Shown: positions 5,461 through 55,973 of the stretch, in pieces
Layout of the letters: every line of letters begins with the position of its first letter
Numbering within the stretch: the first letter of the stretch is position 1
Assembly (NCBI GenBank): GCA_964503465.1
Contig: CAZCYZ010000001.1
Location: 195,731 to 259,730 of the forward strand
Source: an uncultured Gammaproteobacteria bacterium
GTDB lineage: Bacteria; Patescibacteriota; Microgenomatia; UBA12405
Direction: 5' to 3'
DNA length: 64,000 nt
The notes under the pieces: model-generated
Databases searched by the model: none
What the model saw: the letters and a program-made list of their open reading frames with translations, nothing else
What the model was told of the DNA's origin: nothing
Made by a program: the position numbers and the translations under genes

Positions 5461-6335
5461 TGTCAATTCTTGGCACTGGTCTTTCGGGACTTGTTGGTTC
5501 ACGAATAGTTGAGCTAAATCCTCAATACGAATTTATCGACATTTCCCTCGAATCAGGCTTTGATATATTAAATCCGGGATCTTTAAATAAGGTTTTTCAA
5601 AATTTTACCGGTGACACTGTCATTCATCTGGCCGCTTTTACCGACACCAACTCTGCTTGGGAACAACGTGGTGACCACAACGGTCTTTGTTACCAACTTA
5701 ACGTTGTTGGTACCCAGAACATCCTGGATCTCTGTCAAAAATACAAAAAATACTTGATTTATTTTTCGACAGATTTTGTTTTTGATGGAACCAAAAAGGG
5801 AAGTTATCTTGAAACCGATACTCCCAACCCCATTGAGTGGTATGGCCACACCAAATGTCTTGCCGAAAAACTAATTCAACAATCAGGCCACCCTGCCACC
5901 ATTATCCGTATTGCCTATCCCTATCGTAGCCACTTTGATGCCAAGTCTGACATTGTTCGCAAAATTATCACCAAGTTCCAAAATGGTGAGAATTTGAAAA
6001 TGTTTACCGATCAAACTACCACTCCCACCTTTATCGATGACATTGCGCTCGGTTTACAGCATTTCTTTACTCACCAGCCAGTCGGTATTTATCATTTAGT
6101 CGGCTCCTCATCACAATCACCCTATGATCTTGCCGTTCTCATTGCCGATATTTTTCACCTAAACAAAAATCAACTTCAGCCGAGTTCACTTCGTGATTAT
6201 TTGGTTGCAAATCCTCCCCCCGCTCGGCCGTGGCAAATAAATCTTAGCCTTTCGAATCACAAAGTTTATACTTTGGGGATAAAAACGCGAACTATCACTG
6301 ATGGCTTAATGGAACTCAAAAAACAGTTGGGTTGA
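5460..6335 (+). CDS. rfbD: dTDP-4-dehydrorhamnose reductase
   Basis: MSILGTGLSGLVGSRI... RmlD-like SDR; completes the dTDP-L-rhamnose pathway. Confidence 0.85.
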   Translation: MSILGTGLSGLVGSRIVELNPQYEFIDISLESGFDILNPGSLNKVFQNFTGDTVIHLAAFTDTNSAWEQRGDHNGLCYQLNVVGTQNILDLCQKYKKYLIYFSTDFVFDGTKKGSYLETDTPNPIEWYGHTKCLAEKLIQQSGHPATIIRIAYPYRSHFDAKSDIVRKIITKFQNGENLKMFTDQTTTPTFIDDIALGLQHFFTHQPVGIYHLVGSSSQSPYDLAVLIADIFHLNKNQLQPSSLRDYLVANPPPARPWQINLSLSNHKVYTLGIKTRTITDGLMELKKQLG

Positions 6336-6840
6336 CATTTTTTCTCTTTTCTAGCCTCACGATCTCATCCATCGACATGGTCTTAAACTTTACATTAGCC
6401 CGGTCTGGGAAATATATAGCAACTTCTGGACCAATTTCTCTATCAATTCCGTTAATATTCCATTCTAAATCGGGATACCTACCAACAAAACTATGTAAAT
6501 CCATATTTATAACGAATTCAGCGTGTTCAAGTCCTTCGGAGAACTTGTCACCTTCAGCTGGGGCTAAAACTTCAAAGTACTTTATTTCACTACTCTGATA
6601 CTTTAATGGTCGATCCAGCAAATAAATATCCACCGGCCGGTTGCGGATGATATTGTGAGAAATCCGTTTACCATATCCACCCAAAAGCCTACTTATTGAG
6701 TCGTAAGATTTATTCGAGATCGCCCTATAAGCAATATGGTCAAACTTGCATCCTTTAATCTCAATTCCCACACTATCAATATTCTTAAAAACTCTGGCCA
6801 AAAAATTCGTATAATCACCAATTATTTCCTCAACCCTCAT
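6316..6840 (-). CDS. Hypothetical protein, possibly VOC/glyoxalase-like fold
   Basis: 174-aa ORF with FDHIAYR motif; no confident family assignment. Confidence 0.4.
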   Translation of the reverse strand: MRVEEIIGDYTNFLARVFKNIDSVGIEIKGCKFDHIAYRAISNKSYDSISRLLGGYGKRISHNIIRNRPVDIYLLDRPLKYQSSEIKYFEVLAPAEGDKFSEGLEHAEFVINMDLHSFVGRYPDLEWNINGIDREIGPEVAIYFPDRANVKFKTMSMDEIVRLEKRKNVNPTVF

Positions 6841-7969
6841 TGTTAATTATATCAGCCACTATCTCTCCCTCCCTAACCGCAAAGTTCATTCCTCTGTCCT
6901 CAGGATATATTCGAGCAAAGTTCACCTGATAAGTTTTTTTATTAAGCTTCATTTCTGGTACCTTATATCCAGTACTTACTACATGTTGGGCATACTTAAA
7001 GCTAAAAATGGACTTCTGTTCAACTTTCTCAATACCAAAACTTGGAAAAATCTTTTTAAGATAATCAAACCACTCCTTCTCGTCTACTTTTGTTTTTCCA
7101 TATGCCCCCAGATAATAAACATTGTCTCCGCCATAATTTTCCTTGTCTATAAAATTAGTGTGCTGAATAAAGGCCAAAAAAGGGGATTGGGTATCGTTTA
7201 TATTGTGCCAATAATACTTTGACAGGTTCTGTTTACTGGTAAAAACCAGACACACTGCTGGCAGGTAGTCTATTCTCTTAATTGGAGCGCTGGTTATTAT
7301 CTTGTCAAAGTTTTTTTCCTCTTTAAGCTCTGTCCCCAACTTTATTGCTCCACCGTTCGCTTTAATTCTTTTTGCCAGTTCATCGGTTACCTGTTGGAAT
7401 CCTCCCATTAAGTAACCCAAACCCCCGCTTCCTCTAGTATGAATCCTGGCCCACATCCAGGCCATAGAGACATCTCTGTATCTATCATTAAATTTGCCCC
7501 GTAACAGTGGTTCCCATACCACCTTGTAAGCTCTTCTCCCGCACCACTTTTCCATCCACTCTGCCGCTGTTACTTTTTCAAATTTCTTCCAATTGCGCTC
7601 TTTTTCCAGATAAATTTTTACTAGCCCTAACCTTAACTTGTCCATTAGCCCCAGTGGTTTAAATCGGAACAAGTCCACTGCCCCAGCAAACGGATAAACC
7701 TGACTATCATAATAAATTGCCGTCACATCTTTTCGCCAAACTAATTTGTCAATCAGCCCCAATTCTTTTACCAGAGCTATATAGTCTTTGTCTTTTCTAA
7801 AAATATGATGATATGTTTTTTCTAGATTTGTTCCATTTATTTCAAATCCTCCTGCCAGTCCCCCTAGTTCTTTTTCCTTTTCAAAAACCGTTATCTTGTG
7901 TCCCTCTTGGCTCAACCTATACCCAGCTACTAATCCCGTTAGCCCCCCTCCCACAATTGCTATTTTCAT
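6830..7969 (-). CDS. NAD(P)/FAD-dependent oxidoreductase (amine-oxidase / protoporphyrinogen-oxidase-like Rossmann N-terminus)
   Basis: MKIAIVGGGLTGLVAGYRL...VFEKEKELGG dinucleotide-binding motif; 379 aa. Confidence 0.65.
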   Translation of the reverse strand: MKIAIVGGGLTGLVAGYRLSQEGHKITVFEKEKELGGLAGGFEINGTNLEKTYHHIFRKDKDYIALVKELGLIDKLVWRKDVTAIYYDSQVYPFAGAVDLFRFKPLGLMDKLRLGLVKIYLEKERNWKKFEKVTAAEWMEKWCGRRAYKVVWEPLLRGKFNDRYRDVSMAWMWARIHTRGSGGLGYLMGGFQQVTDELAKRIKANGGAIKLGTELKEEKNFDKIITSAPIKRIDYLPAVCLVFTSKQNLSKYYWHNINDTQSPFLAFIQHTNFIDKENYGGDNVYYLGAYGKTKVDEKEWFDYLKKIFPSFGIEKVEQKSIFSFKYAQHVVSTGYKVPEMKLNKKTYQVNFARIYPEDRGMNFAVREGEIVADIINNEG

Positions 7970-26021: not shown

Positions 26022-26465
26022 ATGAGGCATCGAATCTCTGGTAAAAAATTAGGACGGGATCACAATCAACGGCAAGCATTGCTACGCTCCCTGGTCAGGG
26101 CCATGTTTGTTCATGGACACCTCACTACTACCCATGCCAAGGCAAAATTTGTTAACTCCCTAATTGAGAAGCTTTGTACCCTTAGCAAACAAGACGATCT
26201 AACTGCCAGTCGTGGCTTTTTTCGTTATTTTCAAGATCGCCACCTCAGCCTTACTATCGTCAAAGCTCTTCGTCAAAGTTTCGCCGCTCAATCATCCAAC
26301 TTTACCAAGCTAACCAAGATCTTTCGTCGCCTTGGTGATCAGGCCGTTGTGGTTAGATTATCATTCACTCAACCGTATAAACTGCAACTACCAGTCAAAG
26401 ACAAAGATCAAAAGAATCAGGATCAAAAAGTCACCAAAGTTACCAAGAAAAAAGAAACCAAATGA
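26022..26465 (+). CDS. rplQ: 50S ribosomal protein L17 (with Lys-rich C-terminal extension)
   Basis: MRHRISGKKLGRDHNQRQALLRSL. Confidence 0.9.
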   Translation: MRHRISGKKLGRDHNQRQALLRSLVRAMFVHGHLTTTHAKAKFVNSLIEKLCTLSKQDDLTASRGFFRYFQDRHLSLTIVKALRQSFAAQSSNFTKLTKIFRRLGDQAVVVRLSFTQPYKLQLPVKDKDQKNQDQKVTKVTKKKETK

Positions 26466-26893
26466 TAAACTCTCACACTACCGTTATTCAAGGCAACCAA
26501 CCCCAACGTAACTGGCATCTTGTTGATCTTGATGGCCAAACTCTTGGTCGTGTTGCCACTATTATTAGTGCTTTTTTGATCGGCAAAAACAAAACTGCAT
26601 ATTCGTATCACCGTGACGATGGTGACTATGTCGTTGCCATTAATGCTGCCAAGATTAAAGTTACCGGTAAAAAACTCACCCAAAAACTTTATCAAAGTTA
26701 TTCTGGTCACCCCGGTGGTCTCAAGGAAATCAAACTTTCCCAATTGCTTCACCAAGACCCAAGGCTTGTCATTGTTCATGCTGTCAAAGGCATGCTTCCC
26801 AAAAACAAACTTCGAGATCCCCGAATGGCCCGTCTCAAAGTTTTTGTTGATGCCAATCATACTTTCGCCGACAAGTTAACAGCCAAAAAATAA
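26462..26893 (+). CDS. rplM: 50S ribosomal protein L13
   Basis: WHLVDLDGQTLGRVAT. Confidence 0.9.
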   Translation: MINSHTTVIQGNQPQRNWHLVDLDGQTLGRVATIISAFLIGKNKTAYSYHRDDGDYVVAINAAKIKVTGKKLTQKLYQSYSGHPGGLKEIKLSQLLHQDPRLVIVHAVKGMLPKNKLRDPRMARLKVFVDANHTFADKLTAKK

Positions 26894-26895
26894 AT

Positions 26896-28053: not shown

Positions 28054-28579
28054 TTTCAAGATAAAACAATCTTGGTAGTGTAAATAGGTAAATCTTAAGC
28101 ACTCCAGCTGTTGTCATCCCCTCACTAATTCTTTTGTTAATAATCCACTCCAGTTCTGTAGCGTATCTGGTATCAAACGGATACCACCAAAAGATTTGTG
28201 GTCTCATCTTGCCTTCTAGTCCGACAAGCGACAACCAGTAACTTAAGTCGTCCAACATTAAGTGGCTTAACATCACCCCAGCCGATAACACCAACGTCCT
28301 TCTTGGCACCCGATGCCTCAATAGTACCCACATCAAAAGCCAAATTATTGCCCCGCCCATTAAGGTGTGAATTGGAAAATAGTGATGTGTTCCTGCCGGA
28401 AAACCAAATAACTCCGGCAAAAACAAATCAAAGTCAAGGATAATAGACGACAAAAAAACAATCCCCAACTCTTGCTTCGTCAATTCTTTTTTGGATGTTT
28501 GGGCAATCAAATACCCAGCCGATAAGTGTCCCAACGGCAGCATACTATTTTTCTCCCAGCAATCTACTAATGTTGGCAA
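27980..28579 (-). CDS. Membrane protein, possibly membrane-bound metal-dependent hydrolase (YdjM/DUF457-like)
   Basis: Multi-TM ORF with His-rich motifs; its 3' end overlaps the uppP 3' end by 74 nt on the opposite strand; start may be the internal ATG (MLPLGHLSAGY). Confidence 0.4.
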   Translation of the reverse strand: MPTLVDCWEKNSMLPLGHLSAGYLIAQTSKKELTKQELGIVFLSSIILDFDLFLPELFGFPAGTHHYFPIHTLMGGAIIWLLMWVLLRHRVPRRTLVLSAGVMLSHLMLDDLSYWLSLVGLEGKMRPQIFWWYPFDTRYATELEWIINKRISEGMTTAGVLKIYLFTLPRLFYLEIILFLTAIGVGLRKRYRFQKAKKN

Positions 28580-29114
28580 ATGATCTAGAATCCATCAATT
28601 CGCCAATAATTTTTCCTTTCTGAGTCATTCTTAGCCTTGGCACCGCCATTTTCGATGCCCTGACGTACGCTATTTCACCCCTATCGAGAAATTCGTAGTA
28701 ACCATCTGATGGTTCAGCAACTGCACCACTACCCCAATTCCATGTTGCACAAACAAGGATAAGGTCAATTTGACGTCCATTCCCCCAGGCCTCACGAACC
28801 AACTCCACTACATCCGTCTCACTGTCCTTGTTTTTTGTTGTCCAATCGCCATTATTCATATGGCCATGACCATCGATTACCATAAGATCTCTACACATAA
28901 TTTCATCGACCCGGAGACAGTCGACTATATAAATGTGTGGCTTGTCTGGTGGATCTATTGCTCCACACCAAGGATCAACTGGGGGAACATCAACAATGTA
29001 ATTCGGTGATTCCTGTACACCCCAAGGTAACTGCGGATGGTTTCGGTAATATTTTCCTAGTCCTCGAAACTCAGTTGGTTCTCGAGAATTAAACCATTCC
29101 GACAGATTTTTCAT
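28545..29114 (-). CDS. Hypothetical protein (189 aa)
   Basis: Intact ORF downstream of tRNA-Pro on the minus strand; DGHGHMNNGDW motif; no confident family. Confidence 0.4.
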   Translation of the reverse strand: MKNLSEWFNSREPTEFRGLGKYYRNHPQLPWGVQESPNYIVDVPPVDPWCGAIDPPDKPHIYIVDCLRVDEIMCRDLMVIDGHGHMNNGDWTTKNKDSETDVVELVREAWGNGRQIDLILVCATWNWGSGAVAEPSDGYYEFLDRGEIAYVRASKMAVPRLRMTQKGKIIGELMDSRSFANISRLLGEK

Positions 29115-29133
29115 AACACTTCATTCTATCAAA

Positions 29134-29209
29134 GGTCGGGGATAGCAGACTCGAACTGCCAGCCTCACGCACCCCATGCGTGCGCGCTAACCAATTGCGC
29201 CAATCCCCG
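29134..29209 (-). tRNA. tRNA-Pro (anticodon GGG)
   Basis: Manual fold of the reverse complement: 7-bp acceptor CGGGGAT/ATCCCCG, D-stem GCGC, anticodon stem CACGC/GCGTG with loop AT-GGG-GT, T-arm GGCAG-TTCGAGT-CTGCT; minus-strand TGaTATAAT extended -10 at about 29224-29233. Confidence 0.8.
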
Positions 29210-29304
29210 TTTTGGATCATCTATTATATCAACAATTCTTGTCTTCGTGTTTTATTCGGATTATCTCCTTGACATGATCTAGTCGTGATTGCTATCACTA
29301 ATCT

Positions 29305-32970: not shown

Positions 32971-33004
32971 AATCCCCCTTGAACTATCTAAAGGGGGATT
33001 TTTG
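32971..33004 (+). terminator. Intrinsic terminator after hup
   Basis: aatccccctt-gaactatcta-aagggggatt hairpin followed by tttt. Confidence 0.8.
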
Positions 33005-33018
33005 GTTTAGAATTGTCC

Positions 33019-33342
33019 ATGACAGTCCTTATTTGGCCAATTGTTAGCATTGTCATTAACGCCTTACTTTCACTGTATCGACACCGGGGCTTCCAAATTT
33101 TTCCAGTTTTTGCCACTTATGATTGTTTCTATTACGATGGGTTCATTCTTTGGTCACTTCGACTACTTCTCGTTTCATCAATTGTCTACCTATCATTTTG
33201 GGTTTTTCGGGAAAAGGTCAGACCCAAAATTATTCTTTATTTTTTAATTATTTTTTGTTTTATATTATTGGTATATTTATATTCCGTTCATATTGAACAA
33301 ACACCCGGTCCCAACGGATCATCCTGGTGTCAATATATATGA
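33019..33342 (+). CDS. Hypothetical small membrane protein (doubtful)
   Basis: Three hydrophobic segments; the 3' half is extremely AT-rich and may be promoter DNA rather than coding. Confidence 0.25.
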   Translation: MTVLIWPIVSIVINALLSLYRHRGFQIFPVFATYDCFYYDGFILWSLRLLLVSSIVYLSFWVFREKVRPKIILYFLIIFCFILLVYLYSVHIEQTPGPNGSSWCQYI

Positions 33343-34298
33343 TTCCGACTATTTCCGTTTCTCACCTCTCCAAATCTTTCAAGGTTTTTGACAAGCAACC
33401 CGGTTTGGTCTCTTCAATTAAATCCATTTTTTACCGTCCCCAACATCTTGTTGAAGCGGTAAAGGACATTAGTTTCACCATCAACGAAGGTGAACTAGTT
33501 GGTTTTATTGGTCCCAACGGCGCCGGCAAAACCACCACCCTCAAAATGCTCTCTGGTCTTCTTTATCCCACCTCGGGCCATATCAATGTCCTTGGATTTA
33601 CTCCTCAGGACAGAAATTATGATTTTTTAAAAAAAATCGGCTTTGTTTTGGGGCAAAAGAATCAACTTTGGTGGGATATTCCACCCCAGGAAAGCTTTCT
33701 TCTTATCAAAGCCATGTACGACATCACTGACCGTGATTATCGTCGTCGCTTGGATTTTTTTATTGAGTCTCTTGAAATTGGAGACATCATTCGAATTCAA
33801 ACCAAAAAACTCTCTCTTGGACAAAGAATGCGCTGTGAGTTTGCTGCCGCCCTTCTCCATTCCCCCAAAGTTATCTTTCTTGATGAACCCACTATCGGCC
33901 TTGATGTTGTTGCCAATCTTAAAATTCGTGATTTTATTCATCAATACAATCAGGAATATAAATCAACCATTATCCTTACTAGCCACAACATGGCTGATGT
34001 TTCCAAACTTTGCCGTCGGGTAATTATTATTGATCGCGGAGCTATTTACTACGATGGCTCTCTTGTCGATCTCACCTCCAAATATACCCAACTCAAACTC
34101 CTCAAATTTACCTTCGAACATCCGGTTACTGTCAAGGAACTCAAGCAATCCGGCCAAACTATCAGTCTGTCTCTCCCAAAACACGAAGCTCTTAAATTAG
34201 CCGCCAAGTTGATTTCCAAATATCCGGTAGTTGATCTTAATATCGAAGATCCCCCAATCGAAGACATTATTCGCCAAATTTTTGTTAATCATGCTTAA
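33327..34298 (+). CDS. ABC transporter ATP-binding protein (NBD plus about 90-aa C-terminal domain)
   Basis: Walker A GPNGAGKTTTLKML, signature LSLGQRMR, Walker B IFLDEPT, H-loop. Confidence 0.9.
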   Translation: MSIYMIPTISVSHLSKSFKVFDKQPGLVSSIKSIFYRPQHLVEAVKDISFTINEGELVGFIGPNGAGKTTTLKMLSGLLYPTSGHINVLGFTPQDRNYDFLKKIGFVLGQKNQLWWDIPPQESFLLIKAMYDITDRDYRRRLDFFIESLEIGDIIRIQTKKLSLGQRMRCEFAAALLHSPKVIFLDEPTIGLDVVANLKIRDFIHQYNQEYKSTIILTSHNMADVSKLCRRVIIIDRGAIYYDGSLVDLTSKYTQLKLLKFTFEHPVTVKELKQSGQTISLSLPKHEALKLAAKLISKYPVVDLNIEDPPIEDIIRQIFVNHA

Positions 34299-35085
34299 GT
34301 ACTACATCATCGCCAAAAACACTCTCCAGGTCTATTTTGCCTACCGGCTCAATTTTATCTTTTGGCGGCTTCAGGTAATCATTTCTTTCCTAATTTTTTA
34401 TTATCTTTGGTTTGCTGTTGCCCAAGGCAAACAAACAGTAGGGGATTATACTATTCCCCAAATTTATTCATATTTTGTTATTGGTTATATTATTCGAGCC
34501 TTAGTTTTTTCCACTCGGACCGGTGATATTGGTGGTGATATTCAGTCCGGTACCCTCTCGTCCCTGCTTCTCAGGCCTATAGGCATTATTAAGTTCTATT
34601 TTAGCCGTGACCTTATCGATAAGCTTTTTAATTTAGTTTTTATGACCATTGAGTTTGGACTTATTGTTCTTGTTCTTCGGCCCCAGTTAGTTATTCCCAG
34701 CCCCCTCGATCTCCTCTACTTCACCATTTCCCTTATTATCGCTATTGTCATTTTCTTTTTTTACAGTCTAATAATTTCTTTTCTAACTTTTTGGACCGAT
34801 CAGGCCTGGTCGTCTCGTTTTCTTTTTGGAGTTGTTTTTATTAACCTTTTTTCGGGTCAATATATTCCCCTCGATCTTCTTCCTCGACCTTTGTTCCAGA
34901 TTCTAAACTACACCCCATTTCCCTACCTTTATTATTATCCTGTTCGTTTTTGGTTGGGCAAAGACATTGGTCTAGAACCGCTTCTGACACTTTTTATATC
35001 CCTTCTTATCTTGGGACTATTTTACTTTTCTGCTAATCTCCTCTGGATTCGAGGAAAACTTCGCTATCAGGCTTATGGCAATTAA
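34291..35085 (+). CDS. ABC-2 family transporter permease (subunit 1)
   Basis: About 6 TM helices; start ATG overlaps the ATPase stop (ATGCTTAAG); ABC-2/COG4587-like. Confidence 0.7.
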   Translation: MLKYYIIAKNTLQVYFAYRLNFIFWRLQVIISFLIFYYLWFAVAQGKQTVGDYTIPQIYSYFVIGYIIRALVFSTRTGDIGGDIQSGTLSSLLLRPIGIIKFYFSRDLIDKLFNLVFMTIEFGLIVLVLRPQLVIPSPLDLLYFTISLIIAIVIFFFYSLIISFLTFWTDQAWSSRFLFGVVFINLFSGQYIPLDLLPRPLFQILNYTPFPYLYYYPVRFWLGKDIGLEPLLTLFISLLILGLFYFSANLLWIRGKLRYQAYGN

Positions 35086-35866
35086 AAACGTTTTTACCAC
35101 TTGGATTATTATCGCCAAGAATAATCTCCAAAACCAGCTTCTGACAGCCTCATCATCGTTTTTTTTTATTATTGGTAAAATTGTTACCTTTATCTTCACC
35201 CTACTTACCATCTTTGCCATTTTTAGTACCACCCAAACAATTGTTGGTTTTTCTCTCCATCAGGCTATTATTGTCACTGTTGTCTACAATCTCATCGACT
35301 CATTTACTCAATTTTTATTTCGTTCCATCTATTCTTTTCGTCCGGTATTACTCCGGGGGGAGTTTGACCTTGATTTACTCAAGCCATTACCTTCATTTTT
35401 TCGCCCACTACTCTCTGGCCCGGACTTCTTTGATCTCCCCTCCATCATTATTCAGGTGGTTAGTCTAATTTTTTTCCTTATTAAATTTAATATTAATCCA
35501 AGTCTTGTTGACATTGCCGCCTTTCTTTCTCTCTTTTTAATTAGTGTCATTGTTGCTTTTTCACTACACTTATTAATGGCCGCCTTTTCCATCCTCACCA
35601 CCGAAATTGACAATATTGCCTGGATATACCGTTCTTTTGTCAGGGCAGGAATTGTTCCCACTGATGTTTATACCGGTAGTTTTAGGTTAATTCTTGACTA
35701 CATTATCCCTGTCACCATTCTCGTGACTGTTCCCGCTAAGGCTATCCTTGGTCTTCTTGATTTCCACTTTATTACCTACGTCGTCATTTTTTCGGCAATT
35801 TTGCTTACCATCTCTCTTTGGTTCTGGCGCTTCACTCTTCGCCACTATACCAGTACTGGCAGCTAA
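35075..35866 (+). CDS. ABC-2 family transporter permease (subunit 2)
   Basis: Second, distinct 6-TM permease overlapping the previous gene by 11 nt. Confidence 0.7.
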   Translation: MAIKNVFTTWIIIAKNNLQNQLLTASSSFFFIIGKIVTFIFTLLTIFAIFSTTQTIVGFSLHQAIIVTVVYNLIDSFTQFLFRSIYSFRPVLLRGEFDLDLLKPLPSFFRPLLSGPDFFDLPSIIIQVVSLIFFLIKFNINPSLVDIAAFLSLFLISVIVAFSLHLLMAAFSILTTEIDNIAWIYRSFVRAGIVPTDVYTGSFRLILDYIIPVTILVTVPAKAILGLLDFHFITYVVIFSAILLTISLWFWRFTLRHYTSTGS

Positions 35867-35886
35867 GTTGAGATATAATATAGGAT

Positions 35887-37626
35887 ATGCAATCGGTAAA
35901 GGTTGTTCTAATCAACTTAACCAAGCCAAATACAGCCAAGGGTTCAGGCCTGGAAGCCTTAGGAATTGAAACTGTCGCAGGACACATTTTGGGGAAATTT
36001 GGCCCTATGATCAAGGTAAGACTGTTCGATGCCCAGCTTGATTCAATATCAAAAATAATATCTAAAGTACGCAATTTTAACCCGGATCTTGTGGGTATCT
36101 CGGTTAATATCGGAGCAATTTCTGCTGCCGGACTGATTACAAAAAAGTTAACTAAATATCAGAACCCAAAAATTGTTTTTGGGGCTCGGGGGGCTGAATT
36201 CTATCCAGATTATTTACCCTGCCCCATAAGAACAGAGTGTTTTATAGCTTCTGGGTGGGGGGAAATAGCTTTGGAAGATATCGTATCCTATATGATTGGG
36301 AAAAAAGACTTAAAGCAGATAAGAAACATCCTAAAATATAGCTCCCCAGATAGCAATCTCTGGCAATCTACACCATGGTCAAAACAAGCAATTTTAGATT
36401 TACGAAAATCATTTCCGCCCTATCGGGCCAACCTAGACAGATATCGAAAACATGAAATGGTGACCATGGAGACTCAAAGAGGTTGCCCATATGCAAAATG
36501 TTATTTTTGTCCTCGGCCACACTCCTTAAAAGAGATACATATTTTTCCGATTGAAAAGAAGTTGAGAGAGTTGGTGTATCTATCCAAAAAGAAAGTTCGA
36601 AGCATTCCCATCATAGACGAAGAGTTTTTTCTTGGAAAAAATGGAATTAGCAAAAAAATAAAGTTGATAGAAGGGATCATTAAATATAAAAACAGAGGAC
36701 AAATTCATCCAGACCTAAACTTTTGTGTTGACATGAGAGCTGATACTATCTGTACGGCTATTGATGAGTTTGGCGGACTTGGTAATTCTAGTAACCCTCT
36801 TAATTTACTCAAAAGTGCCGGGGTGAAATTTATCTTTGTTGGCATAGAGAGTCTTTCTCAAGGAATGCTTGATCATCTCAACAAGGGGACAACTGTTGAA
36901 CAGAATGTAAGAGCTGTAACAGCTTTAAGAGAAGTTGGAATAAAATTTCAAGCAGGTAGCCTCAGTCTGGCTCCATTGATGAGGTTTAATTGGCTCAAGG
37001 AATCAGTAATTAGAATCCGACAACAAAACTTAGCTGAGCTTGCCGATCCTTCCTTACCTTTGATTCTATTTTCCACCTCAGAATATTACAAAAGGTATTT
37101 CGTTGATCATAAAGACAATCAAGAACTTCTTGACCTAACAAATAAAAACTTACCTGCCCTCGACACCTTATCTGGAATTCCCTATAAATACAAAGATCCT
37201 AAAGTTCAGATTATTGCTGGGGTTCACGATTTCCATGAAAAAGAGATGTATTTGCTAATGAAGAAACTAAGAAGTATCAATGCAAAGTTAGTTTATGGTG
37301 GAGAGGAAAAATCCGATATATATATGGAAATTTGGAAGTGGTTGAGTTATGGGCGACTGGAAATTATTCTTTGGGGTATGGAGGAGTTATGTGGTGAGTT
37401 ATCTAAAACTGACTGGAGGAAAACTATCTCCATAAAGCATCGTCTGATTTTTAAAGAGATGCAAAGGAGAAAACAGTATATGGCAACATCGCTCTTGAGG
37501 TTTATTCTACGTTCAAAACAGTCACTAAATCATAATCAAAAAAGATTGGTTGAGGTAAGTGATCTACTTAAGATAACCAAGGAGGTAACCAGCTCTACCC
37601 AATCGGTATATCGATTCGAAAGTTAA
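35887..37626 (+). CDS. B12-binding-domain-containing radical SAM protein (class B-like), function unknown
   Basis: N-terminal cobalamin-binding-like domain (VVLINLTKPN...DLVGISV), Fe-S motif RGCPYAKCYFC (CX4CX2C), Elp3-like FIFVGIESLSQGMLDHLNKG motif, long C-terminal extension without SPASM cysteines; AGA/ATA-rich codon usage unlike neighbouring genes. Confidence 0.75.
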   Translation: MQSVKVVLINLTKPNTAKGSGLEALGIETVAGHILGKFGPMIKVRLFDAQLDSISKIISKVRNFNPDLVGISVNIGAISAAGLITKKLTKYQNPKIVFGARGAEFYPDYLPCPIRTECFIASGWGEIALEDIVSYMIGKKDLKQIRNILKYSSPDSNLWQSTPWSKQAILDLRKSFPPYRANLDRYRKHEMVTMETQRGCPYAKCYFCPRPHSLKEIHIFPIEKKLRELVYLSKKKVRSIPIIDEEFFLGKNGISKKIKLIEGIIKYKNRGQIHPDLNFCVDMRADTICTAIDEFGGLGNSSNPLNLLKSAGVKFIFVGIESLSQGMLDHLNKGTTVEQNVRAVTALREVGIKFQAGSLSLAPLMRFNWLKESVIRIRQQNLAELADPSLPLILFSTSEYYKRYFVDHKDNQELLDLTNKNLPALDTLSGIPYKYKDPKVQIIAGVHDFHEKEMYLLMKKLRSINAKLVYGGEEKSDIYMEIWKWLSYGRLEIILWGMEELCGELSKTDWRKTISIKHRLIFKEMQRRKQYMATSLLRFILRSKQSLNHNQKRLVEVSDLLKITKEVTSSTQSVYRFES

Positions 37627-37731
37627 AACAGAGGGACAATTCTCCTTCGACAATCATCAGAATAAAACTAGTGATGTTTTTCTACCACCTGCCTCTTTAC
37701 AGTCTACATAGTTAATATATACAATAATCCC

Positions 37732-37923
37732 ATGTCTAGTCCAGACCAAAAACCAACAACTCACGCATCATCACCTTCACATCCACAGCAAAGACTGATT
37801 GAGAGTCTTTTACACCCAGAATCTAGCTGCTACTTTCCGGCTCATCCACCATCGGATAGAACCAAACGTATTCTCGAGGACATGGAAAGGAGACTGAACA
37901 GTCAAAGTCAAATTAAACCGTAA
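37732..37923 (+). CDS. Small hypothetical protein (63 aa, Ser/Pro/His-rich), co-located with the rSAM gene
   Basis: Shares the rSAM gene's AGA/AGG codon bias; no SD sequence; no homology recognised. Confidence 0.3.
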   Translation: MSSPDQKPTTHASSPSHPQQRLIESLLHPESSCYFPAHPPSDRTKRILEDMERRLNSQSQIKP

Positions 37924-37935
37924 TATAATACCCTG

Positions 37936-39009
37936 ATGTCCAAACTTTCGATTGGGATTGTCGGTTTGCCAAACGTCGGCAAATCGACTCTATTTAATGC
38001 TCTCCTTGGCCGAGCAGTCGCCAATGCCAGTAACTACCCTTTTTGCACTATTGATCCCAACGTTGGTGTGGTCGAGGTTCCTGACGACAAATTGCCGATT
38101 CTGGCCGACATTGTTAAAACCACCAAAATAATTCCCGCCATTGTCGAGTTTGTTGACATCGCCGGTTTGGTCAAAGGAGCTTCCCAAGGTGAAGGCTTGG
38201 GTAATAAATTCTTAACCAACATCCGCGACTGTGACGCTATCTGTCATGTTGTTAGAAGTTTTTCCGACCCAAATGTTGTTCGTGAAGGCAGCACCGACCC
38301 TCAAGGTGATTTCGAGGTCATTTCTGCTGAGCTAATTATCAAGGATTTAGAAACCATCGATCGCTACCTTGATACCAACAAAAATAATGCTCTCGAAAAA
38401 AACAGTAAAAAGTTTTTATTAGCCACCAAGTTAAAAACCGAACTAGAGAAGGGGATTCTCGCTGTCAATCTGGGTCTGTCTCAAGAAGAAAAACTTCTTC
38501 TGAAAGAGTTTTTCCTTCTTACCGCTAAACCTTATTTTATTGTTTTCAATGTTGATGAAAACTCATACAAGAATGTTGAAAATTTTAAATTAGAAATTAA
38601 AAATTGCCAAGCTGTTATTCCAGTATGTGCCAAAATAGAATTTGAATTATCCGAAATACCACCCGAGGATCGGCAAAGTTATTTGAAGGAATTAGGAATG
38701 GACAAATCAGGTCTCGAACGCGTTATTCAACAAGCTTACAACACTCTCGGTCTTCAATCGTTTTATACCGCTGGGGTCAAAGAAGTTCGGGCTTGGACCA
38801 TTGCCAAAGGGAGCACTGCACCCCAAGCCGCCGGAGTTATTCACACTGATTTTGAGCGTGGATTTATTATGGCCGAAGTTGTTTCTTATCCCGATTTTGT
38901 CGCCAATCAAGGTTTCGAAGGGGCCAAAGTCAAGGGGTTTTTGCGTCACGAAGGCAAAGATTATATAATGTCCCCCGACGACATCGTCGAGTTTAGGTTT
39001 AATGTTTAA
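37936..39009 (+). CDS. ychF: Ribosome-binding ATPase YchF (Obg-family GTPase)
   Basis: [17 protein letters not shown]1 motif; TGS C-terminal domain. Confidence 0.9.
38580..38606. repeat. AT-rich repeat motif (AAAATTTTAAATTAGAAATTAAAAATT), copy inside ychF
   Basis: Identical 15-mer TAAATTAGAAATTAA also at 1161-1175 and 11766-11780; 16-mer TTAGAAATTAAAAATT also at 24423-24438. Confidence 0.6.
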
Positions 39010-39161
39010 TTTCAAAATGCCTTCAGGTGTTAAAGAAATAGTTCAGAAAGTTAAACTAACCCTCGTAACTGATAATCGACTCCCGATACAAGCTCCCGCA
39101 CCAGACGCTAGTGGTCTCATCAATCAAAAAATAACTTTCGATGAAAACGGAAGATTGAAGG

Positions 39162-40118
39162 ATGTTACCTATGAAACCATCCCTCAAGAAACTTCCTAAG
39201 CTTCTTATTATTTCCGGTCCGACGGCTACAGGGAAAACCGCTTTGGCGGTCAAATTGGCTCAAAAATTTAATGGCCAACTTATTTCTGCTGACTCTCGTC
39301 AAATTTATCGTGGTATGGACGTTGGTACCGGCAAAGACCATCCCACCAACACCCCTATTCACCTTGTTGATATTATCAACCCCAACCAATTATTTTCCGC
39401 CGCTCAATACCACCAACTTGCCCTCAACATAATCCACCAAGTTTGGCAAGCCAACAAGCTCCCAATTATTGTCGGCGGTACTGGTCAATATATCGATGCC
39501 ATTATTAATCCCCAGCCTACCTTTGTTGTCCCACCCAACCACATCTTAAGGTTTTTTCTAAACAGATTCCCCCTATCATTCCTTCAACTTATTTTAAAAA
39601 CTTTGGACTTTAAAACCTTTAACTCGCTCAATCATTCCGATTCCTCCAACCCCCACCGCTTGATCAGAAAAATTGAAATTAATATATCAAATAAAATTAG
39701 CCGCTCCCCCTCCATTCTTCAAGGGAGGGGGATGGGGGGTGGGTTTGACGTTCTCCACATATCGTTAACCGCCCCCAACCAATTTTTGTACCAGCGTATC
39801 GACCAACGTGTCGACCAAAGACTCAAACAAGGCCTATTTGACGAAATCAAAATTTTAATCAGAAAATATCACTGGTCCGACCCAGGCCTCAACTGCCTTG
39901 CTTACAAAGAATTCAAAACTGGTTTTACTCAAAAAAATGTTGACACTTGGCGGTTTCACGAACACTCCCTGGCTCGCCGTCAAAAAACATGGTTCAAAGC
40001 TCAACCTAACATCAATTTCATTGACATTACCAAACCAAATTTCGAACCACAAATAATTGCCTTAATTTCTAACTTTATTTCCCCCCTTCTTCAAGGGGGG
40101 AAGACAGGGGGGTTTTGA
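39162..40118 (+). CDS. miaA: tRNA dimethylallyltransferase
   Basis: LLIISGPTATGKTALAVKLA P-loop, ADSRQIYRGMDVGTGK; contains G-rich hairpin elements in-frame at 39714-39756 and at its 3' end (40081-40116). Confidence 0.85.
   Translation: MLPMKPSLKKLPKLLIISGPTATGKTALAVKLAQKFNGQLISADSRQIYRGMDVGTGKDHPTNTPIHLVDIINPNQLFSAAQYHQLALNIIHQVWQANKLPIIVGGTGQYIDAIINPQPTFVVPPNHILRFFLNRFPLSFLQLILKTLDFKTFNSLNHSDSSNPHRLIRKIEINISNKISRSPSILQGRGMGGGFDVLHISLTAPNQFLYQRIDQRVDQRLKQGLFDEIKILIRKYHWSDPGLNCLAYKEFKTGFTQKNVDTWRFHEHSLARRQKTWFKAQPNINFIDITKPNFEPQIIALISNFISPLLQGGKTGGF
39714..39756. repeat. G-rich hairpin element, copy 3 (inside the miaA ORF)
   Basis: ccgctccccctccattcttcaagggagggggatggggggtgggtttg; translated in-frame as SPSILQGRGMGGGFD. 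Confidence 0.6.
40081..40116. repeat. G-rich hairpin element, copy 4 (3' end of miaA)
   Basis: ccccccttcttcaaggggggaagacaggggggttttg supplies the last codons and stop of miaA. Confidence 0.6.
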
Positions 40119-41122
40119 TGGTACAATCAATCATGAAACCTCAACGGGTCGAAATTTCCTACAAAACCATTGTCTTTACTGTAGTTTTTCTCATTGCTCT
40201 TTATGTTCTCTGGCAGGTCAGAAGTCTAATTTATCTTATCCTTTTTTGCTTTGTTTTCATGGAAGCTCTCAACCCTACTGTTAGCCGACTAGAATCCCTC
40301 AAAATTCCCCGCCCTTTTGCTATTCTTTTCCTTTATGCAGTCATTTTGGGCTTTTTCTCCTTCACCATTGCTGGAGTTTTCCCCATATTGGTTGAGCAAA
40401 CTACCAGTCTCATCAAAACCCTTCCCGGCACCTTAGAAAATCTCAACTTTTTTGGCGTCTCCGCCGTTGACCTATCATCTCAACTCAAAATTGTTGAGGG
40501 TCTGCCCGAAAATATTGCCAAAACCGTCATCTCTCTCTTCTCCAATATTTTTTCTGCTTTTGTCATTCTTGTCATTACCTTTTACCTTCTGATGGAAAGG
40601 AGGAATATTGCCAACTATGGCTTTCATCTTTTTGGTACTTCCGGCAAACAAAAAACTATTGAGATTCTTGAACAGCTTGAAAACCGTCTTGGTAGTTGGG
40701 TCAACGCCGAAGTTTTTCTAATGATAACTATTGGTCTTCTTTCGTATCTTGGTTATCTTCTTCTTGGTCTTAACTATACTGTTCCCTTGGCTATTTTGGC
40801 AGGGATGCTTGAAATTGTCCCCAATATCGGGCCAACTGTTGCTACTGTTGCTGCCGCCTTAGTTGGATTAACTATCTCCCCCTTGGTGGCCGTTCTGGCT
40901 GTAGTTTGGGGGATCATTGTTCAACAAGTCGAGAACAACTTCATCGTTCCGCGGGTAATGAGGTCAACTGTCGGTCTTAACCCTCTAGTCACTATTCTTC
41001 TTTTGGCCACTGGTGCCAAGCTAGGTGGAGTAGTTGGAGCCGTCTTGGCTATCCCTGTCTATCTTACAGTTGAAACTATTTTCAAAGTTGTCACCCAACC
41101 CCCCGCCAGGAGCAAAAAATAA
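40115..41122 (+). CDS. AI-2E family transporter (UPF0118/PerM-like)
   Basis: 8-TM protein with LEIVPNIGPTVATVAAALVGL motif. Confidence 0.8.
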   Translation: MMVQSIMKPQRVEISYKTIVFTVVFLIALYVLWQVRSLIYLILFCFVFMEALNPTVSRLESLKIPRPFAILFLYAVILGFFSFTIAGVFPILVEQTTSLIKTLPGTLENLNFFGVSAVDLSSQLKIVEGLPENIAKTVISLFSNIFSAFVILVITFYLLMERRNIANYGFHLFGTSGKQKTIEILEQLENRLGSWVNAEVFLMITIGLLSYLGYLLLGLNYTVPLAILAGMLEIVPNIGPTVATVAAALVGLTISPLVAVLAVVWGIIVQQVENNFIVPRVMRSTVGLNPLVTILLLATGAKLGGVVGAVLAIPVYLTVETIFKVVTQPPARSKK

Positions 41123-54929: not shown

Positions 54930-55973
54930 TTACTTCACCCACTTATCTACCACTGCTGGTATATAAGCCACAAAGTTATTGTCACCCTCAAACACAAAAA
55001 TCGGTTGCATGTAATTTGTCAGTGTCACTGGTTCAAAATAAGCCAGATACATTTTTCTGATGGCTACCTTAGCTGACTTATTATCCACTGCTGGCCAATA
55101 ATTGCCCAATTTCAAATCATTCCACGCCTCTTCAGCTGTTTTAATCGGATACGTTTCATACGATTCCCGATCAATGTTGGTGTGTTTATAACTCACTTCC
55201 ACCACCTTTTTTCCTACTACCGTTGATCCGGTTAACAACAATGACACCGAAGCTCTTCCATACTCTGATGATAAAATCTTTGTCTCTTTTTCCAGCGCCT
55301 TCCTAAAAAAATCAACCCTAACAATATTGGCTTCAGCTTGGGAATTTACTGGTACCAAGCCACTATCTTCAATTTTCCAAAAACTAACCTTTTTCTCCCC
55401 TCCCGCCAGATCATCCGACAGTTTTCCTCCCTGGTCAAGGTAAAGTTTGGCTTGCTCAATGGCCTTGTCTTTGGTCGGTACCATCCCACTACTGGATAAT
55501 GTCTGATCAGTTAAGTATGGATAACTAATTTTAAAACTACCATCCAAAACATTAATCACCAAACTTTGATTTAACTGATCATTCCTAAATTCATAAATAC
55601 CATTATTTTGATCTTTCTCTATTGGTTTGGTTATAAATTGAAAGTTTTGAGCTGTCTTTGTTTCTTCCTCCAGGGCCAAAAAAGTGTTTAGTGGTCTATA
55701 AACAACATATACTTTCGCTTGATCCGCAAACTTGGGTAAACTATCGTTAGGAAGTTCCAACACAAACTCTTTCTTCTCTGCCTTTTTTTCTGGAAATACA
55801 ATTTTTGGCAACACTCCATAACGGGTTGTTGGTGGTGTATATGGTGGGTGGGCTGCTCGGTAGGCTTTCACTCCCGCCACCAAACCTGTCCACAGTATTA
55901 CAAAAATCACCAAACCACTGCCGCCGTACTTAATTAAATTCCTCGATAAATAAGCTGTCTGCGTCAGCGACAT
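54930..55973 (-). CDS. Hypothetical secreted/membrane-anchored protein (347 aa)
   Basis: N-terminal TM anchor (LVIFVILWTGLVAG), large extracytoplasmic domain; no confident family. Confidence 0.45.
   Translation of the reverse strand: MSLTQTAYLSRNLIKYGGSGLVIFVILWTGLVAGVKAYRAAHPPYTPPTTRYGVLPKIVFPEKKAEKKEFVLELPNDSLPKFADQAKVYVVYRPLNTFLALEEETKTAQNFQFITKPIEKDQNNGIYEFRNDQLNQSLVINVLDGSFKISYPYLTDQTLSSSGMVPTKDKAIEQAKLYLDQGGKLSDDLAGGEKKVSFWKIEDSGLVPVNSQAEANIVRVDFFRKALEKETKILSSEYGRASVSLLLTGSTVVGKKVVEVSYKHTNIDRESYETYPIKTAEEAWNDLKLGNYWPAVDNKSAKVAIRKMYLAYFEPVTLTNYMQPIFVFEGDNNFVAYIPAVVDKWVK

Follow-up and report, generated by a model that had tools for sequence, protein, structure and literature searches.

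A rare OxsB-like radical SAM gene as a probable horizontally acquired islet between an ABC-2 permease gene and ychF in a Candidatus Shapirobacteria genome

The 64,000-nucleotide stretch analysed here (the window), taken from a 470-kb contig (CAZCYZ010000001.1) of the metagenome-derived assembly GCA_964503465.1, carries at 35887..37626 on the + strand a gene for a 579-residue cobalamin-type radical S-adenosylmethionine (SAM) protein that resembles OxsB. At a probability of roughly 0.7, this gene is a horizontally acquired single-gene islet, placed between the last permease gene of an ABC-2 (ATP-binding cassette) transporter and the promoter region of ychF, at a recurrent hotspot; we infer both the direction of the transfer and its recency. 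Acquisition is favoured because the site is empty or variable in relatives, because the protein family is rare, and because its homologues stand out as compositional islands in three other hosts. In the course of events proposed, the gene would have entered a Candidatus Shapirobacteria genome alone, inserting between the permease gene and the ychF promoter region, and would have kept the roughly unskewed, AT-rich third codon positions, rich in AGR (arginine AGA or AGG) and ATA (isoleucine), that are also seen in its homologues from other hosts. The outcome would be a gene that contrasts with its + strand neighbours and resembles the minus-strand genes of its host.

The window holds a str/S10/spc ribosomal gene run, recA, the genes for RNase Y and HU, the ABC-2 transporter, ychF and miaA, nearly all on the + strand. 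The closest relatives of the last permease gene (35075-35866) are found in assemblies of Candidatus Shapirobacteria and Microgenomates, members of the candidate phyla radiation (CPR).

A first-pass annotation of the sequence had described a codon-usage island, rich in AGA/AGG and ATA, that covered both the radical SAM gene and a 63-codon open reading frame (ORF) behind it, and had proposed that the two were acquired together and later than their neighbours. For the radical SAM gene the codon preference is borne out, and every codon quoted as an example is present. AGR and CGN codons number 19 and 12 (19 AGR among 31 arginine codons) and ATA and ATY codons 16 and 37 (16 ATA among 53 isoleucine codons), as against 86 and 651 (of 737) and 94 and 1260 (of 1354) in the 59 other + strand genes pooled, deviations that are significant for both arginine (Fisher's test, odds ratio 12, p = 3e-10) and isoleucine (odds ratio 5.8, p = 9e-7). 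The bias reaches beyond these two amino acids, with ACA, GCA, GTA, GGA/GGG and CCA also raised. The flanking genes have host-type codons, as had been stated, with AGR/CGN counts of 2/12 in the ABC ATPase gene, 2/7 in the last permease gene and 2/9 in ychF.

Other measures also set the gene apart from its neighbours, with z-scores of 4.0-4.9 across third-position purine content, GC skew at third positions (GC3 skew) and codon likelihood ratio. The purine fraction at third positions is 0.52, compared with 0.331 +/- 0.047 (range 0.23-0.41) in + strand genes (z = 4.0), and GC3 skew is +0.09, compared with -0.41 +/- 0.11 (z = 4.6); a leave-one-out log-likelihood ratio between models of plus- and minus-strand genes gives -0.095 per codon, the other + strand genes scoring from 0.018 to 0.476. 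At 0.168, the strand-symmetrised tetranucleotide correlation between the gene and the rest of the window ranks last among 215 windows (mean 0.548, sd 0.094). In cumulative G-C, the top G>C segment in the 64 kb spans 35858-37585 with a rise of 68 (runner-up, 30) and matches the ORF of the radical SAM gene almost exactly; this measure was used to set the right border of the island because sliding-window purine content is dominated by amino-acid composition. The deviation in codons, skew and tetranucleotides is restricted to 35858-37585. Expression level as its cause was rejected in view of + strand neighbours of low expression (the transporter genes and miaA), which have host-type codons.

What this deviation can say about origin is conditioned by the host, whose composition is strongly strand-dependent, with + strand genes having pyrimidine-rich third positions (CGY, ATY and NNY codons). 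Third positions switch between low and high purine content according to gene orientation, both in the window and in six loci from related Shapirobacteria: values for + strand genes in the window and in L004-L011 (the handles used here for the loci compared) lie at 0.17-0.47, and those for minus-strand genes, which prefer AGR and ATA, mostly at 0.45-0.66 (0.41 for one gene of L010). The four minus-strand genes of the window (6316-6840, 6830-7969, 28545-29114 and 54930-55973) together have AGR/CGN counts of 35/19 and ATA/ATY counts of 25/50, with third-position purine contents of 0.45-0.60, GC3 skews of +0.17 to +0.47 and codon likelihood ratios of -0.09 to -0.37, a range into which both the radical SAM gene and the 63-codon ORF (-0.189) fall. 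As a housekeeping control, the minus-strand gene for the CCA-adding enzyme in L006 (third-position purine 0.66, AGR/CGN 22/8) was chosen because the window gene at 28545-29114 is not homologous to the gene at the same place in L007. The + strand of the gaps between called genes is likewise richer in C than in G.

This pattern recalls replication-strand asymmetry, in that third-position purine content flips with orientation and the C>G bias of the + strand extends to the gaps. G-rich third positions are usual for leading strands; here, in a window without a replication origin, the gene-rich strand is instead C-rich and T-rich at third positions. The radical SAM gene is the sole + strand gene that breaks the rule, and, since the asymmetry is strand-wide, a deviant + strand gene is one that has spent a short time on that strand. 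Codon usage alone nonetheless fails to separate acquisition from inversion, because the radical SAM gene looks like a host minus-strand gene. The earlier use of codon usage as a sign of acquisition thus holds for the deviation itself and not as proof of foreign origin, AGR and ATA being normal minus-strand usage in this host.

Comparison of the insertion site among relatives is more informative. On the left, the site is bounded by the second ABC-2 permease gene (35075..35866, +; Pfam ABC2_membrane_6, E = 2e-35), which has counterparts of 53-85% identity in many Shapirobacteria, and on the right by the gene for the GTPase YchF (37936..39009, +; Pfam YchF-GTPase_C and MMR_HSR1); both are native flanks. 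In the six sister contigs that could be examined, the radical SAM gene is absent from the orthologous site. Three contigs have an empty site, with ychF beginning 17-21 nt past the permease stop codon: L005 and L006, both of the Shapirobacteria RBG_13_44_7 type with permeases of 75% identity, and L007, with one of 62%. The closest relative, L004 (85% permease identity), has an unrelated minus-strand gene of 328 codons at the site; L008 has this gene split in two, together with a dCMP deaminase gene; L011 has only a 71-codon ORF; and in L010 the site is rearranged. This varied content among relatives marks the permease-ychF site as a hotspot of recurrent gain and replacement in the lineage, with at least five states. 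The claim that the radical SAM gene arrived later than its neighbours is supported by the empty site in L005, L006 and L007, together with the rarity of the family and its islands in three unrelated hosts.

The 328-residue family that occupies the site elsewhere (L004 2629-3615 and L008 4208-5160, both on the minus strand) has no Pfam or PADLOC match, and its stop codon overlaps that of the permease gene. The L008 copy is divided into ORFs of 188 and 113 residues, possibly by a frameshift. A tblastn search found no remnant of the gene in the window.

Relatives of the radical SAM protein are few and scattered. Only five proteins more than 50% identical to it were found among 5.8e9 clusters, and, in a set of 1.84e9 representatives, E < 1e-80 was reached by just three 50%-identity clusters, in neither case from a CPR genome; the close homologues are confined to a few contigs of 42-61% GC, patchily distributed across unrelated hosts. 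Family-alignment scans of metagenome contigs and viral contigs returned no relatives, and one with the KGTTVEQN motif yielded about 100 distant class B radical SAM loci and only one further close homologue, a partial one (L118). In a plasmid collection, the only matches were of 24-27% identity, mostly annotated as 'RCCLKC-tail radical SAM protein'.

In three other hosts the homologues are themselves compositional islands. The homologue in L002 (about 60% GC), a contig probably from a Chloroflexota host judging by a neighbouring formate dehydrogenase whose 75% identical relative is so labelled, has a third-position GC content (GC3) of 0.58 against 0.76-0.88 in its neighbours and AGR/CGN counts of 36/14 against 23/204 (p = 2e-18). 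In L012 (about 45% GC) the homologue has a GC3 of 0.31 among neighbours of about 0.5, with AGR/CGN counts of 28/16 against 9/42 (p = 6e-6); ATA, for which the homologues of L002 and L012 were tested, is enriched in both (p = 6e-6 and 3e-4, respectively). The homologue in L009 (about 58% GC) has AGR/CGN counts of 10/50 against 3/99 (p = 0.005) and adjoins a transposase of the IS200-type Y1 class. Third-position purine content in these three homologues is 0.49-0.55, compared with 0.52 for the gene in the window, a match that fits the retention of a donor-type state. On the simplest reading of these comparisons, the family would stem from a low-GC reservoir and have entered several unrelated hosts, and the copy in the window would so far be unshaped by the + strand bias of its own.

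The genomic contexts of the homologues differ, comprising a Bmp-type ABC transporter operon in L002, the transposase in L009 and a gamma-glutamyl transpeptidase gene in L012. Within L002 4243-12184, the homologue shares a 14-nt overlap with the final permease gene of the operon, whose Bmp type is annotated as nucleoside-binding or nucleoside uptake, and a gene for a HEPN-domain protein lies just upstream of the operon.

Short repeats at the borders give a further hint of insertion. The 8-bp sequence ATATAATA has just two + strand copies in the 64 kb, which bracket 2.05 kb including both the radical SAM gene and the 63-codon ORF. The left copy (35873..35880, +) lies 6 nt before the ATG of the radical SAM gene and is also a -10-like box; the right copy (37923..37930, +) overlaps the stop codon of the small ORF and forms the conserved -10-like box ahead of ychF. 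At the empty site of L005, which reads GTT-ATATAATAT-CCCG-ATG, a single ATATAATAT stands between the permease stop codon and the ychF ATG, and L004 carries the same ATATAATACCCTGATG junction before ychF. The arrangement resembles a duplication around an insert, and is kept as suggestive because the motif doubles as a -10-like box at several starts: it lies 5-7 nt before the ATG of the radical SAM gene, of the small ORF (as TACAAT) and of ychF, and recurs before ychF in relatives. An Rfam scan of 35000-39500 at E <= 1 returned no RNA family and no known riboswitch or leader upstream of ychF.

Several observations weigh against acquisition. In the two codon families that define the island, the gene is statistically like the four minus-strand genes (p = 0.82 for AGR, p = 0.85 for ATA); its GC content of 37.8% is near the roughly 42% of the host, and no donor has been identified. 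Being a -10-like promoter motif, the direct repeat is possibly functional rather than a target-site duplication, and, if the small ORF is older at the site than the radical SAM gene, its enclosure within the repeat is awkward. Gene and Pfam listings of 33000-41000 contain neither an integrase nor a transposase, no tRNA gene anchors the site (the sole one found in the window is at 29134-29209), and the sample of sister contigs is small.

The main alternative is that the gene is a long-time resident of the lineage, shaped on the opposite strand or in the other replichore, that was recently inverted or translocated into the hotspot, without being foreign at all. Strand-dependent codon usage is lineage-wide, down to the CCA-adding enzyme gene of L006 and the C>G bias of + strand gaps; the appearance of the radical SAM gene is just what relocation of a resident gene from the other strand would produce, which counts against acquisition; and the variable genes at the same site in L004 and L008 are on the minus strand. 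Such an origin is nevertheless unlikely. No homologue of the gene was found in other Shapirobacteria or CPR sequence, and a search for flanking inverted repeats as a sign of inversion in place returned only chance-like pairs of 70-80% complementarity. Moreover, the near absence of GC3 skew sets the gene apart from the mirrored skew of true minus-strand genes, and its homologues in unrelated hosts are already rich in AGR and ATA, so that an origin on a Shapirobacteria minus strand is not needed.

A second alternative, rather less probable still, holds that the gene is ancestral here, that sister lineages have lost it and that selection keeps its rare codons, for example for low expression of a costly or toxic enzyme. 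The same deviation (low GC3, AGR, ATA) is seen in every host examined and could reflect a constraint intrinsic to the gene. However, this history would require several independent clean deletions, each restoring the 17-21 nt permease-ychF junction, and it must accommodate other genes at the site in L004 and L008, a very patchy distribution across hosts of 42-60% GC and the transposase next to the L009 copy; nor would deviations in GC skew and tetranucleotides be expected from codon selection alone. Finally, a chimeric join or binning artefact, of which foreign-looking composition in a metagenome-assembled genome is a classic sign, is scarcely credible here, as a separate 5,490-nt contig (L001), from the Logan assembly of run SRR8925802, is 100% identical to 33513-39002 of the window and spans both junctions, which are clean and lie between intact flanking genes, with a promoter-like element before each start.

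In the classical amelioration view of horizontal transfer, atypical codon usage marks small islets in integration hotspots. An acquired radical SAM gene would share with these islets its atypical composition, absence in relatives, varied cargo at the site, patchy family and, perhaps, its short direct repeats at the borders. It would differ from them in being a single gene of about 1.8 kb, in the lack of an integrase, transposase or tRNA anchor at the window site, and in residing in a host whose strand asymmetry mimics a foreign signature, so that a codon test alone is not diagnostic.

The proposal that the 63-codon ORF (37732..37923, +) arrived together with the radical SAM gene finds one point in its favour, the 8-bp repeat that brackets both, and is otherwise mostly unsupported. 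Of the island first described, the part over the radical SAM gene stands; the part over the ORF does not, this being a C-rich, host-like region. The ORF has AGR/CGN counts of 4/1 and a third-position purine content of 0.56 (binomial p = 1.5e-4 against the + strand gene mean), a codon signal that is weak and ambiguous because only 62 codons were counted, because GC skew in the region is negative (C>G) as in the host, and because the ORF may be non-coding. Its preference for AGR (4 of 5 arginine codons) is that expected from unconstrained sequence rich in A and C. Cumulative G-C resumes the downward trend of the host from 37585, before the ORF begins.

Comparison with relatives likewise separates the ORF from the radical SAM gene. 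Measured against L004, the window shows 77-79% DNA identity in the flanking genes, 73% in a promoter block ahead of the ORF (z = 8.5 against shuffles) and a conserved ychF junction (z = 5.2); between the ORF bodies, similarity stays at the level of shuffled sequence (z = -0.7). The block in the window is a promoter-like site, TTTACA-18-TACAAT (37696..37725, +), which is the best + strand consensus match in the region (10/12) and ends 6 nt before the ATG of the ORF. In L004, L008 and L011, which lack the radical SAM gene, this position is likewise taken by an ORF of 57-71 codons. The small ORFs end 9-12 nt before the ychF ATG or overlap it in the window, L004 and L008, and about 220 nt upstream of it in L011. 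In all four loci (window 37696-37935, L004 3636-3904, L008 5714-5887 and L011 5790-6046), a promoter-like block is followed by an ORF 5-6 nt past the -10 box. BLASTP detected no homology among the four small ORFs and their DNA similarity equals that of shuffles, an alignment showing only a shared 'IL' with nearby charged residues. The ORF of the window has no Pfam, NCBIfam or PADLOC match, and the public collection has no gene call for it; its position is conserved, its sequence is not, and its coding status is uncertain.

The 63-codon ORF thus probably belongs to the upstream region of ychF and would be older at the site than the radical SAM gene. One possibility is a leaderless leader ORF, independent of sequence, that is coupled to ychF; another is that the stretch is non-coding. 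The ORF is neither a partner nor a substrate of the radical SAM protein, and a reading of the pair as the maturase and precursor of a ribosomally synthesized and post-translationally modified peptide was rejected since the small ORF does not travel with the radical SAM gene. At the homologue loci, no gene is called in the 107 nt (L002) or 165 nt (L012) that follow the homologue, and L009 has downstream a single call, of 38 aa on the minus strand, close to where the contig ends; among the genes listed downstream of the homologues, none is common across the loci as a conserved precursor would be.

The nearest characterised relative of the radical SAM protein is OxsB, a cobalamin-dependent radical SAM enzyme that takes part in oxetanocin A biosynthesis and is encoded on a plasmid of Priestia (Bacillus) megaterium (PDB 5UL2-5UL4). 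Its type of chemistry, the ring contraction of 2'-deoxyadenosine phosphates, needs cobalamin and works with an HD phosphohydrolase of the OxsA type. In the window protein, Pfam recognises Radical_SAM and gives B12-binding a score of 24.3 bits, under the cut-off of 32.1, and NCBIfam returns weak class B matches only. The top sequence match in the PDB is OxsB (5ul2, E = 1e-20, residues 40-433). An AlphaFold2 model (pLDDT 81.7, pTM 0.81) likewise has OxsB as its best Foldseek match (E = 2.5e-22, TM 0.65-0.70 over about 650 alignment columns), well ahead of TsrM, CysS and TokK. The model places alternating beta and alpha elements at 4-136, corresponding to the predicted cobalamin-binding domain, and long C-terminal helices at 438-569 (pLDDT about 80-92), which form a helical bundle like that of OxsB.

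Specific residues extend the likeness. OxsB is reported to have a CX4CX2C motif in place of CX3CX2C (PMC9204698), and the same unusual iron-sulfur cluster motif, RGCPYAKCYFC, is found at residues 198-208 of the window protein; its cysteine codons (Cys200, Cys205 and Cys208; 36484..36510, +) were read from the sequence, are kept in homologues and align with the OxsB motif. Residues that contact cobalamin or SAM in OxsB (PMC9204698) recur as well, namely the Asn of SVNxG, the Arg and His of CPRxH after the Cys loop, DEE, GxES and KGTT; the alignment puts the SVN asparagine (Asn74) on Asn186 of OxsB, in the beta3-alpha3 loop of the Rossmann-type cobalamin domain.

The two proteins also differ. 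Identity is just about 20-27%, and the window protein lacks an N-terminal domain, its ORF beginning at the cobalamin domain with an in-frame TAG (35881-35883) two codons 5' of the ATG; the close homologues carry about 140 additional N-terminal residues, which may correspond to domain I of OxsB, and the missing domain was not found elsewhere in the window. There is no adjacent gene for an OxsA-like HD phosphohydrolase, the neighbours being the ABC-2 transporter genes and ychF, and no HD-domain neighbour is present at the homologue loci L002, L009 and L012 either. By sequence and predicted structure, the protein is thus classed as an OxsB-like, cobalamin-type radical SAM protein with an apparent N-terminal truncation; its CX4CX2C motif would coordinate a [4Fe-4S] cluster, SAM would be cleaved, and the substrate would be a small molecule, perhaps a nucleoside or nucleotide. 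In a separate observation, OxsB-like radical SAM domains of 28-31% identity to the window protein were found inside giant proteins of 4,800-6,400 residues (P0123, P0125, P0128 and P0131) of a representative protein library.

A more far-reaching idea is that the gene belongs to a rare, promiscuously transferred OxsB-like group whose members make a modified, chain-terminating nucleoside or nucleotide, comparable to oxetanocin A or to what prokaryotic viperins produce, and act as anti-phage or competitive weapons in hotspots, here in a CPR host unable to make cobalamin. The hints that point this way, none of them decisive, are OxsB as the nearest characterised enzyme, the overlap with the Bmp operon and the HEPN gene in L002, a weak PADLOC match to the candidate defence protein PDC-M51A (E = 4.5e-9) and the foreign look of the gene in every host examined; such a role is quite improbable.

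Elsewhere in the window, the minus-strand pair at 6316-7969, encoding a YecM-like protein and a flavin amine oxidase, has the second-lowest tetranucleotide correlation (0.28), and could be another acquired segment or a plain minus-strand effect. Between uppP and recA (28054-29304) lie a minus-strand gene for a 189-aa protein without family match and a minus-strand tRNA-Pro(GGG) gene (29134-29209); L007 has unrelated minus-strand genes at this place (YdjM-like and amino-acid kinase), making it a second variable spot, one that adjoins a tRNA gene. A 430-nt gap between the L17 and S9 genes (26466-26895) matches in size the L13 gene present there in L007, and the antisense ORF at 26423-26860 (GC3 0.57), to which a choice of the longest ORF leads in this gap, is probably spurious.

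In summary, the radical SAM gene would be a clear-cut case of a streamlined CPR genome gaining a gene, ordinary as an event. It also carries a caution: where codon usage depends strongly on the strand, a foreign gene and a native gene from the other strand look alike in codon statistics, and synteny together with the behaviour of homologues in other hosts is needed to tell them apart. For the small OxsB-like group of cobalamin radical SAM proteins, in which to our knowledge the chemistry is known only for OxsB and a few relatives, the gene adds a rare, truncated and apparently mobile branch; because so few members have known chemistry, it may be a lead for new nucleoside chemistry.

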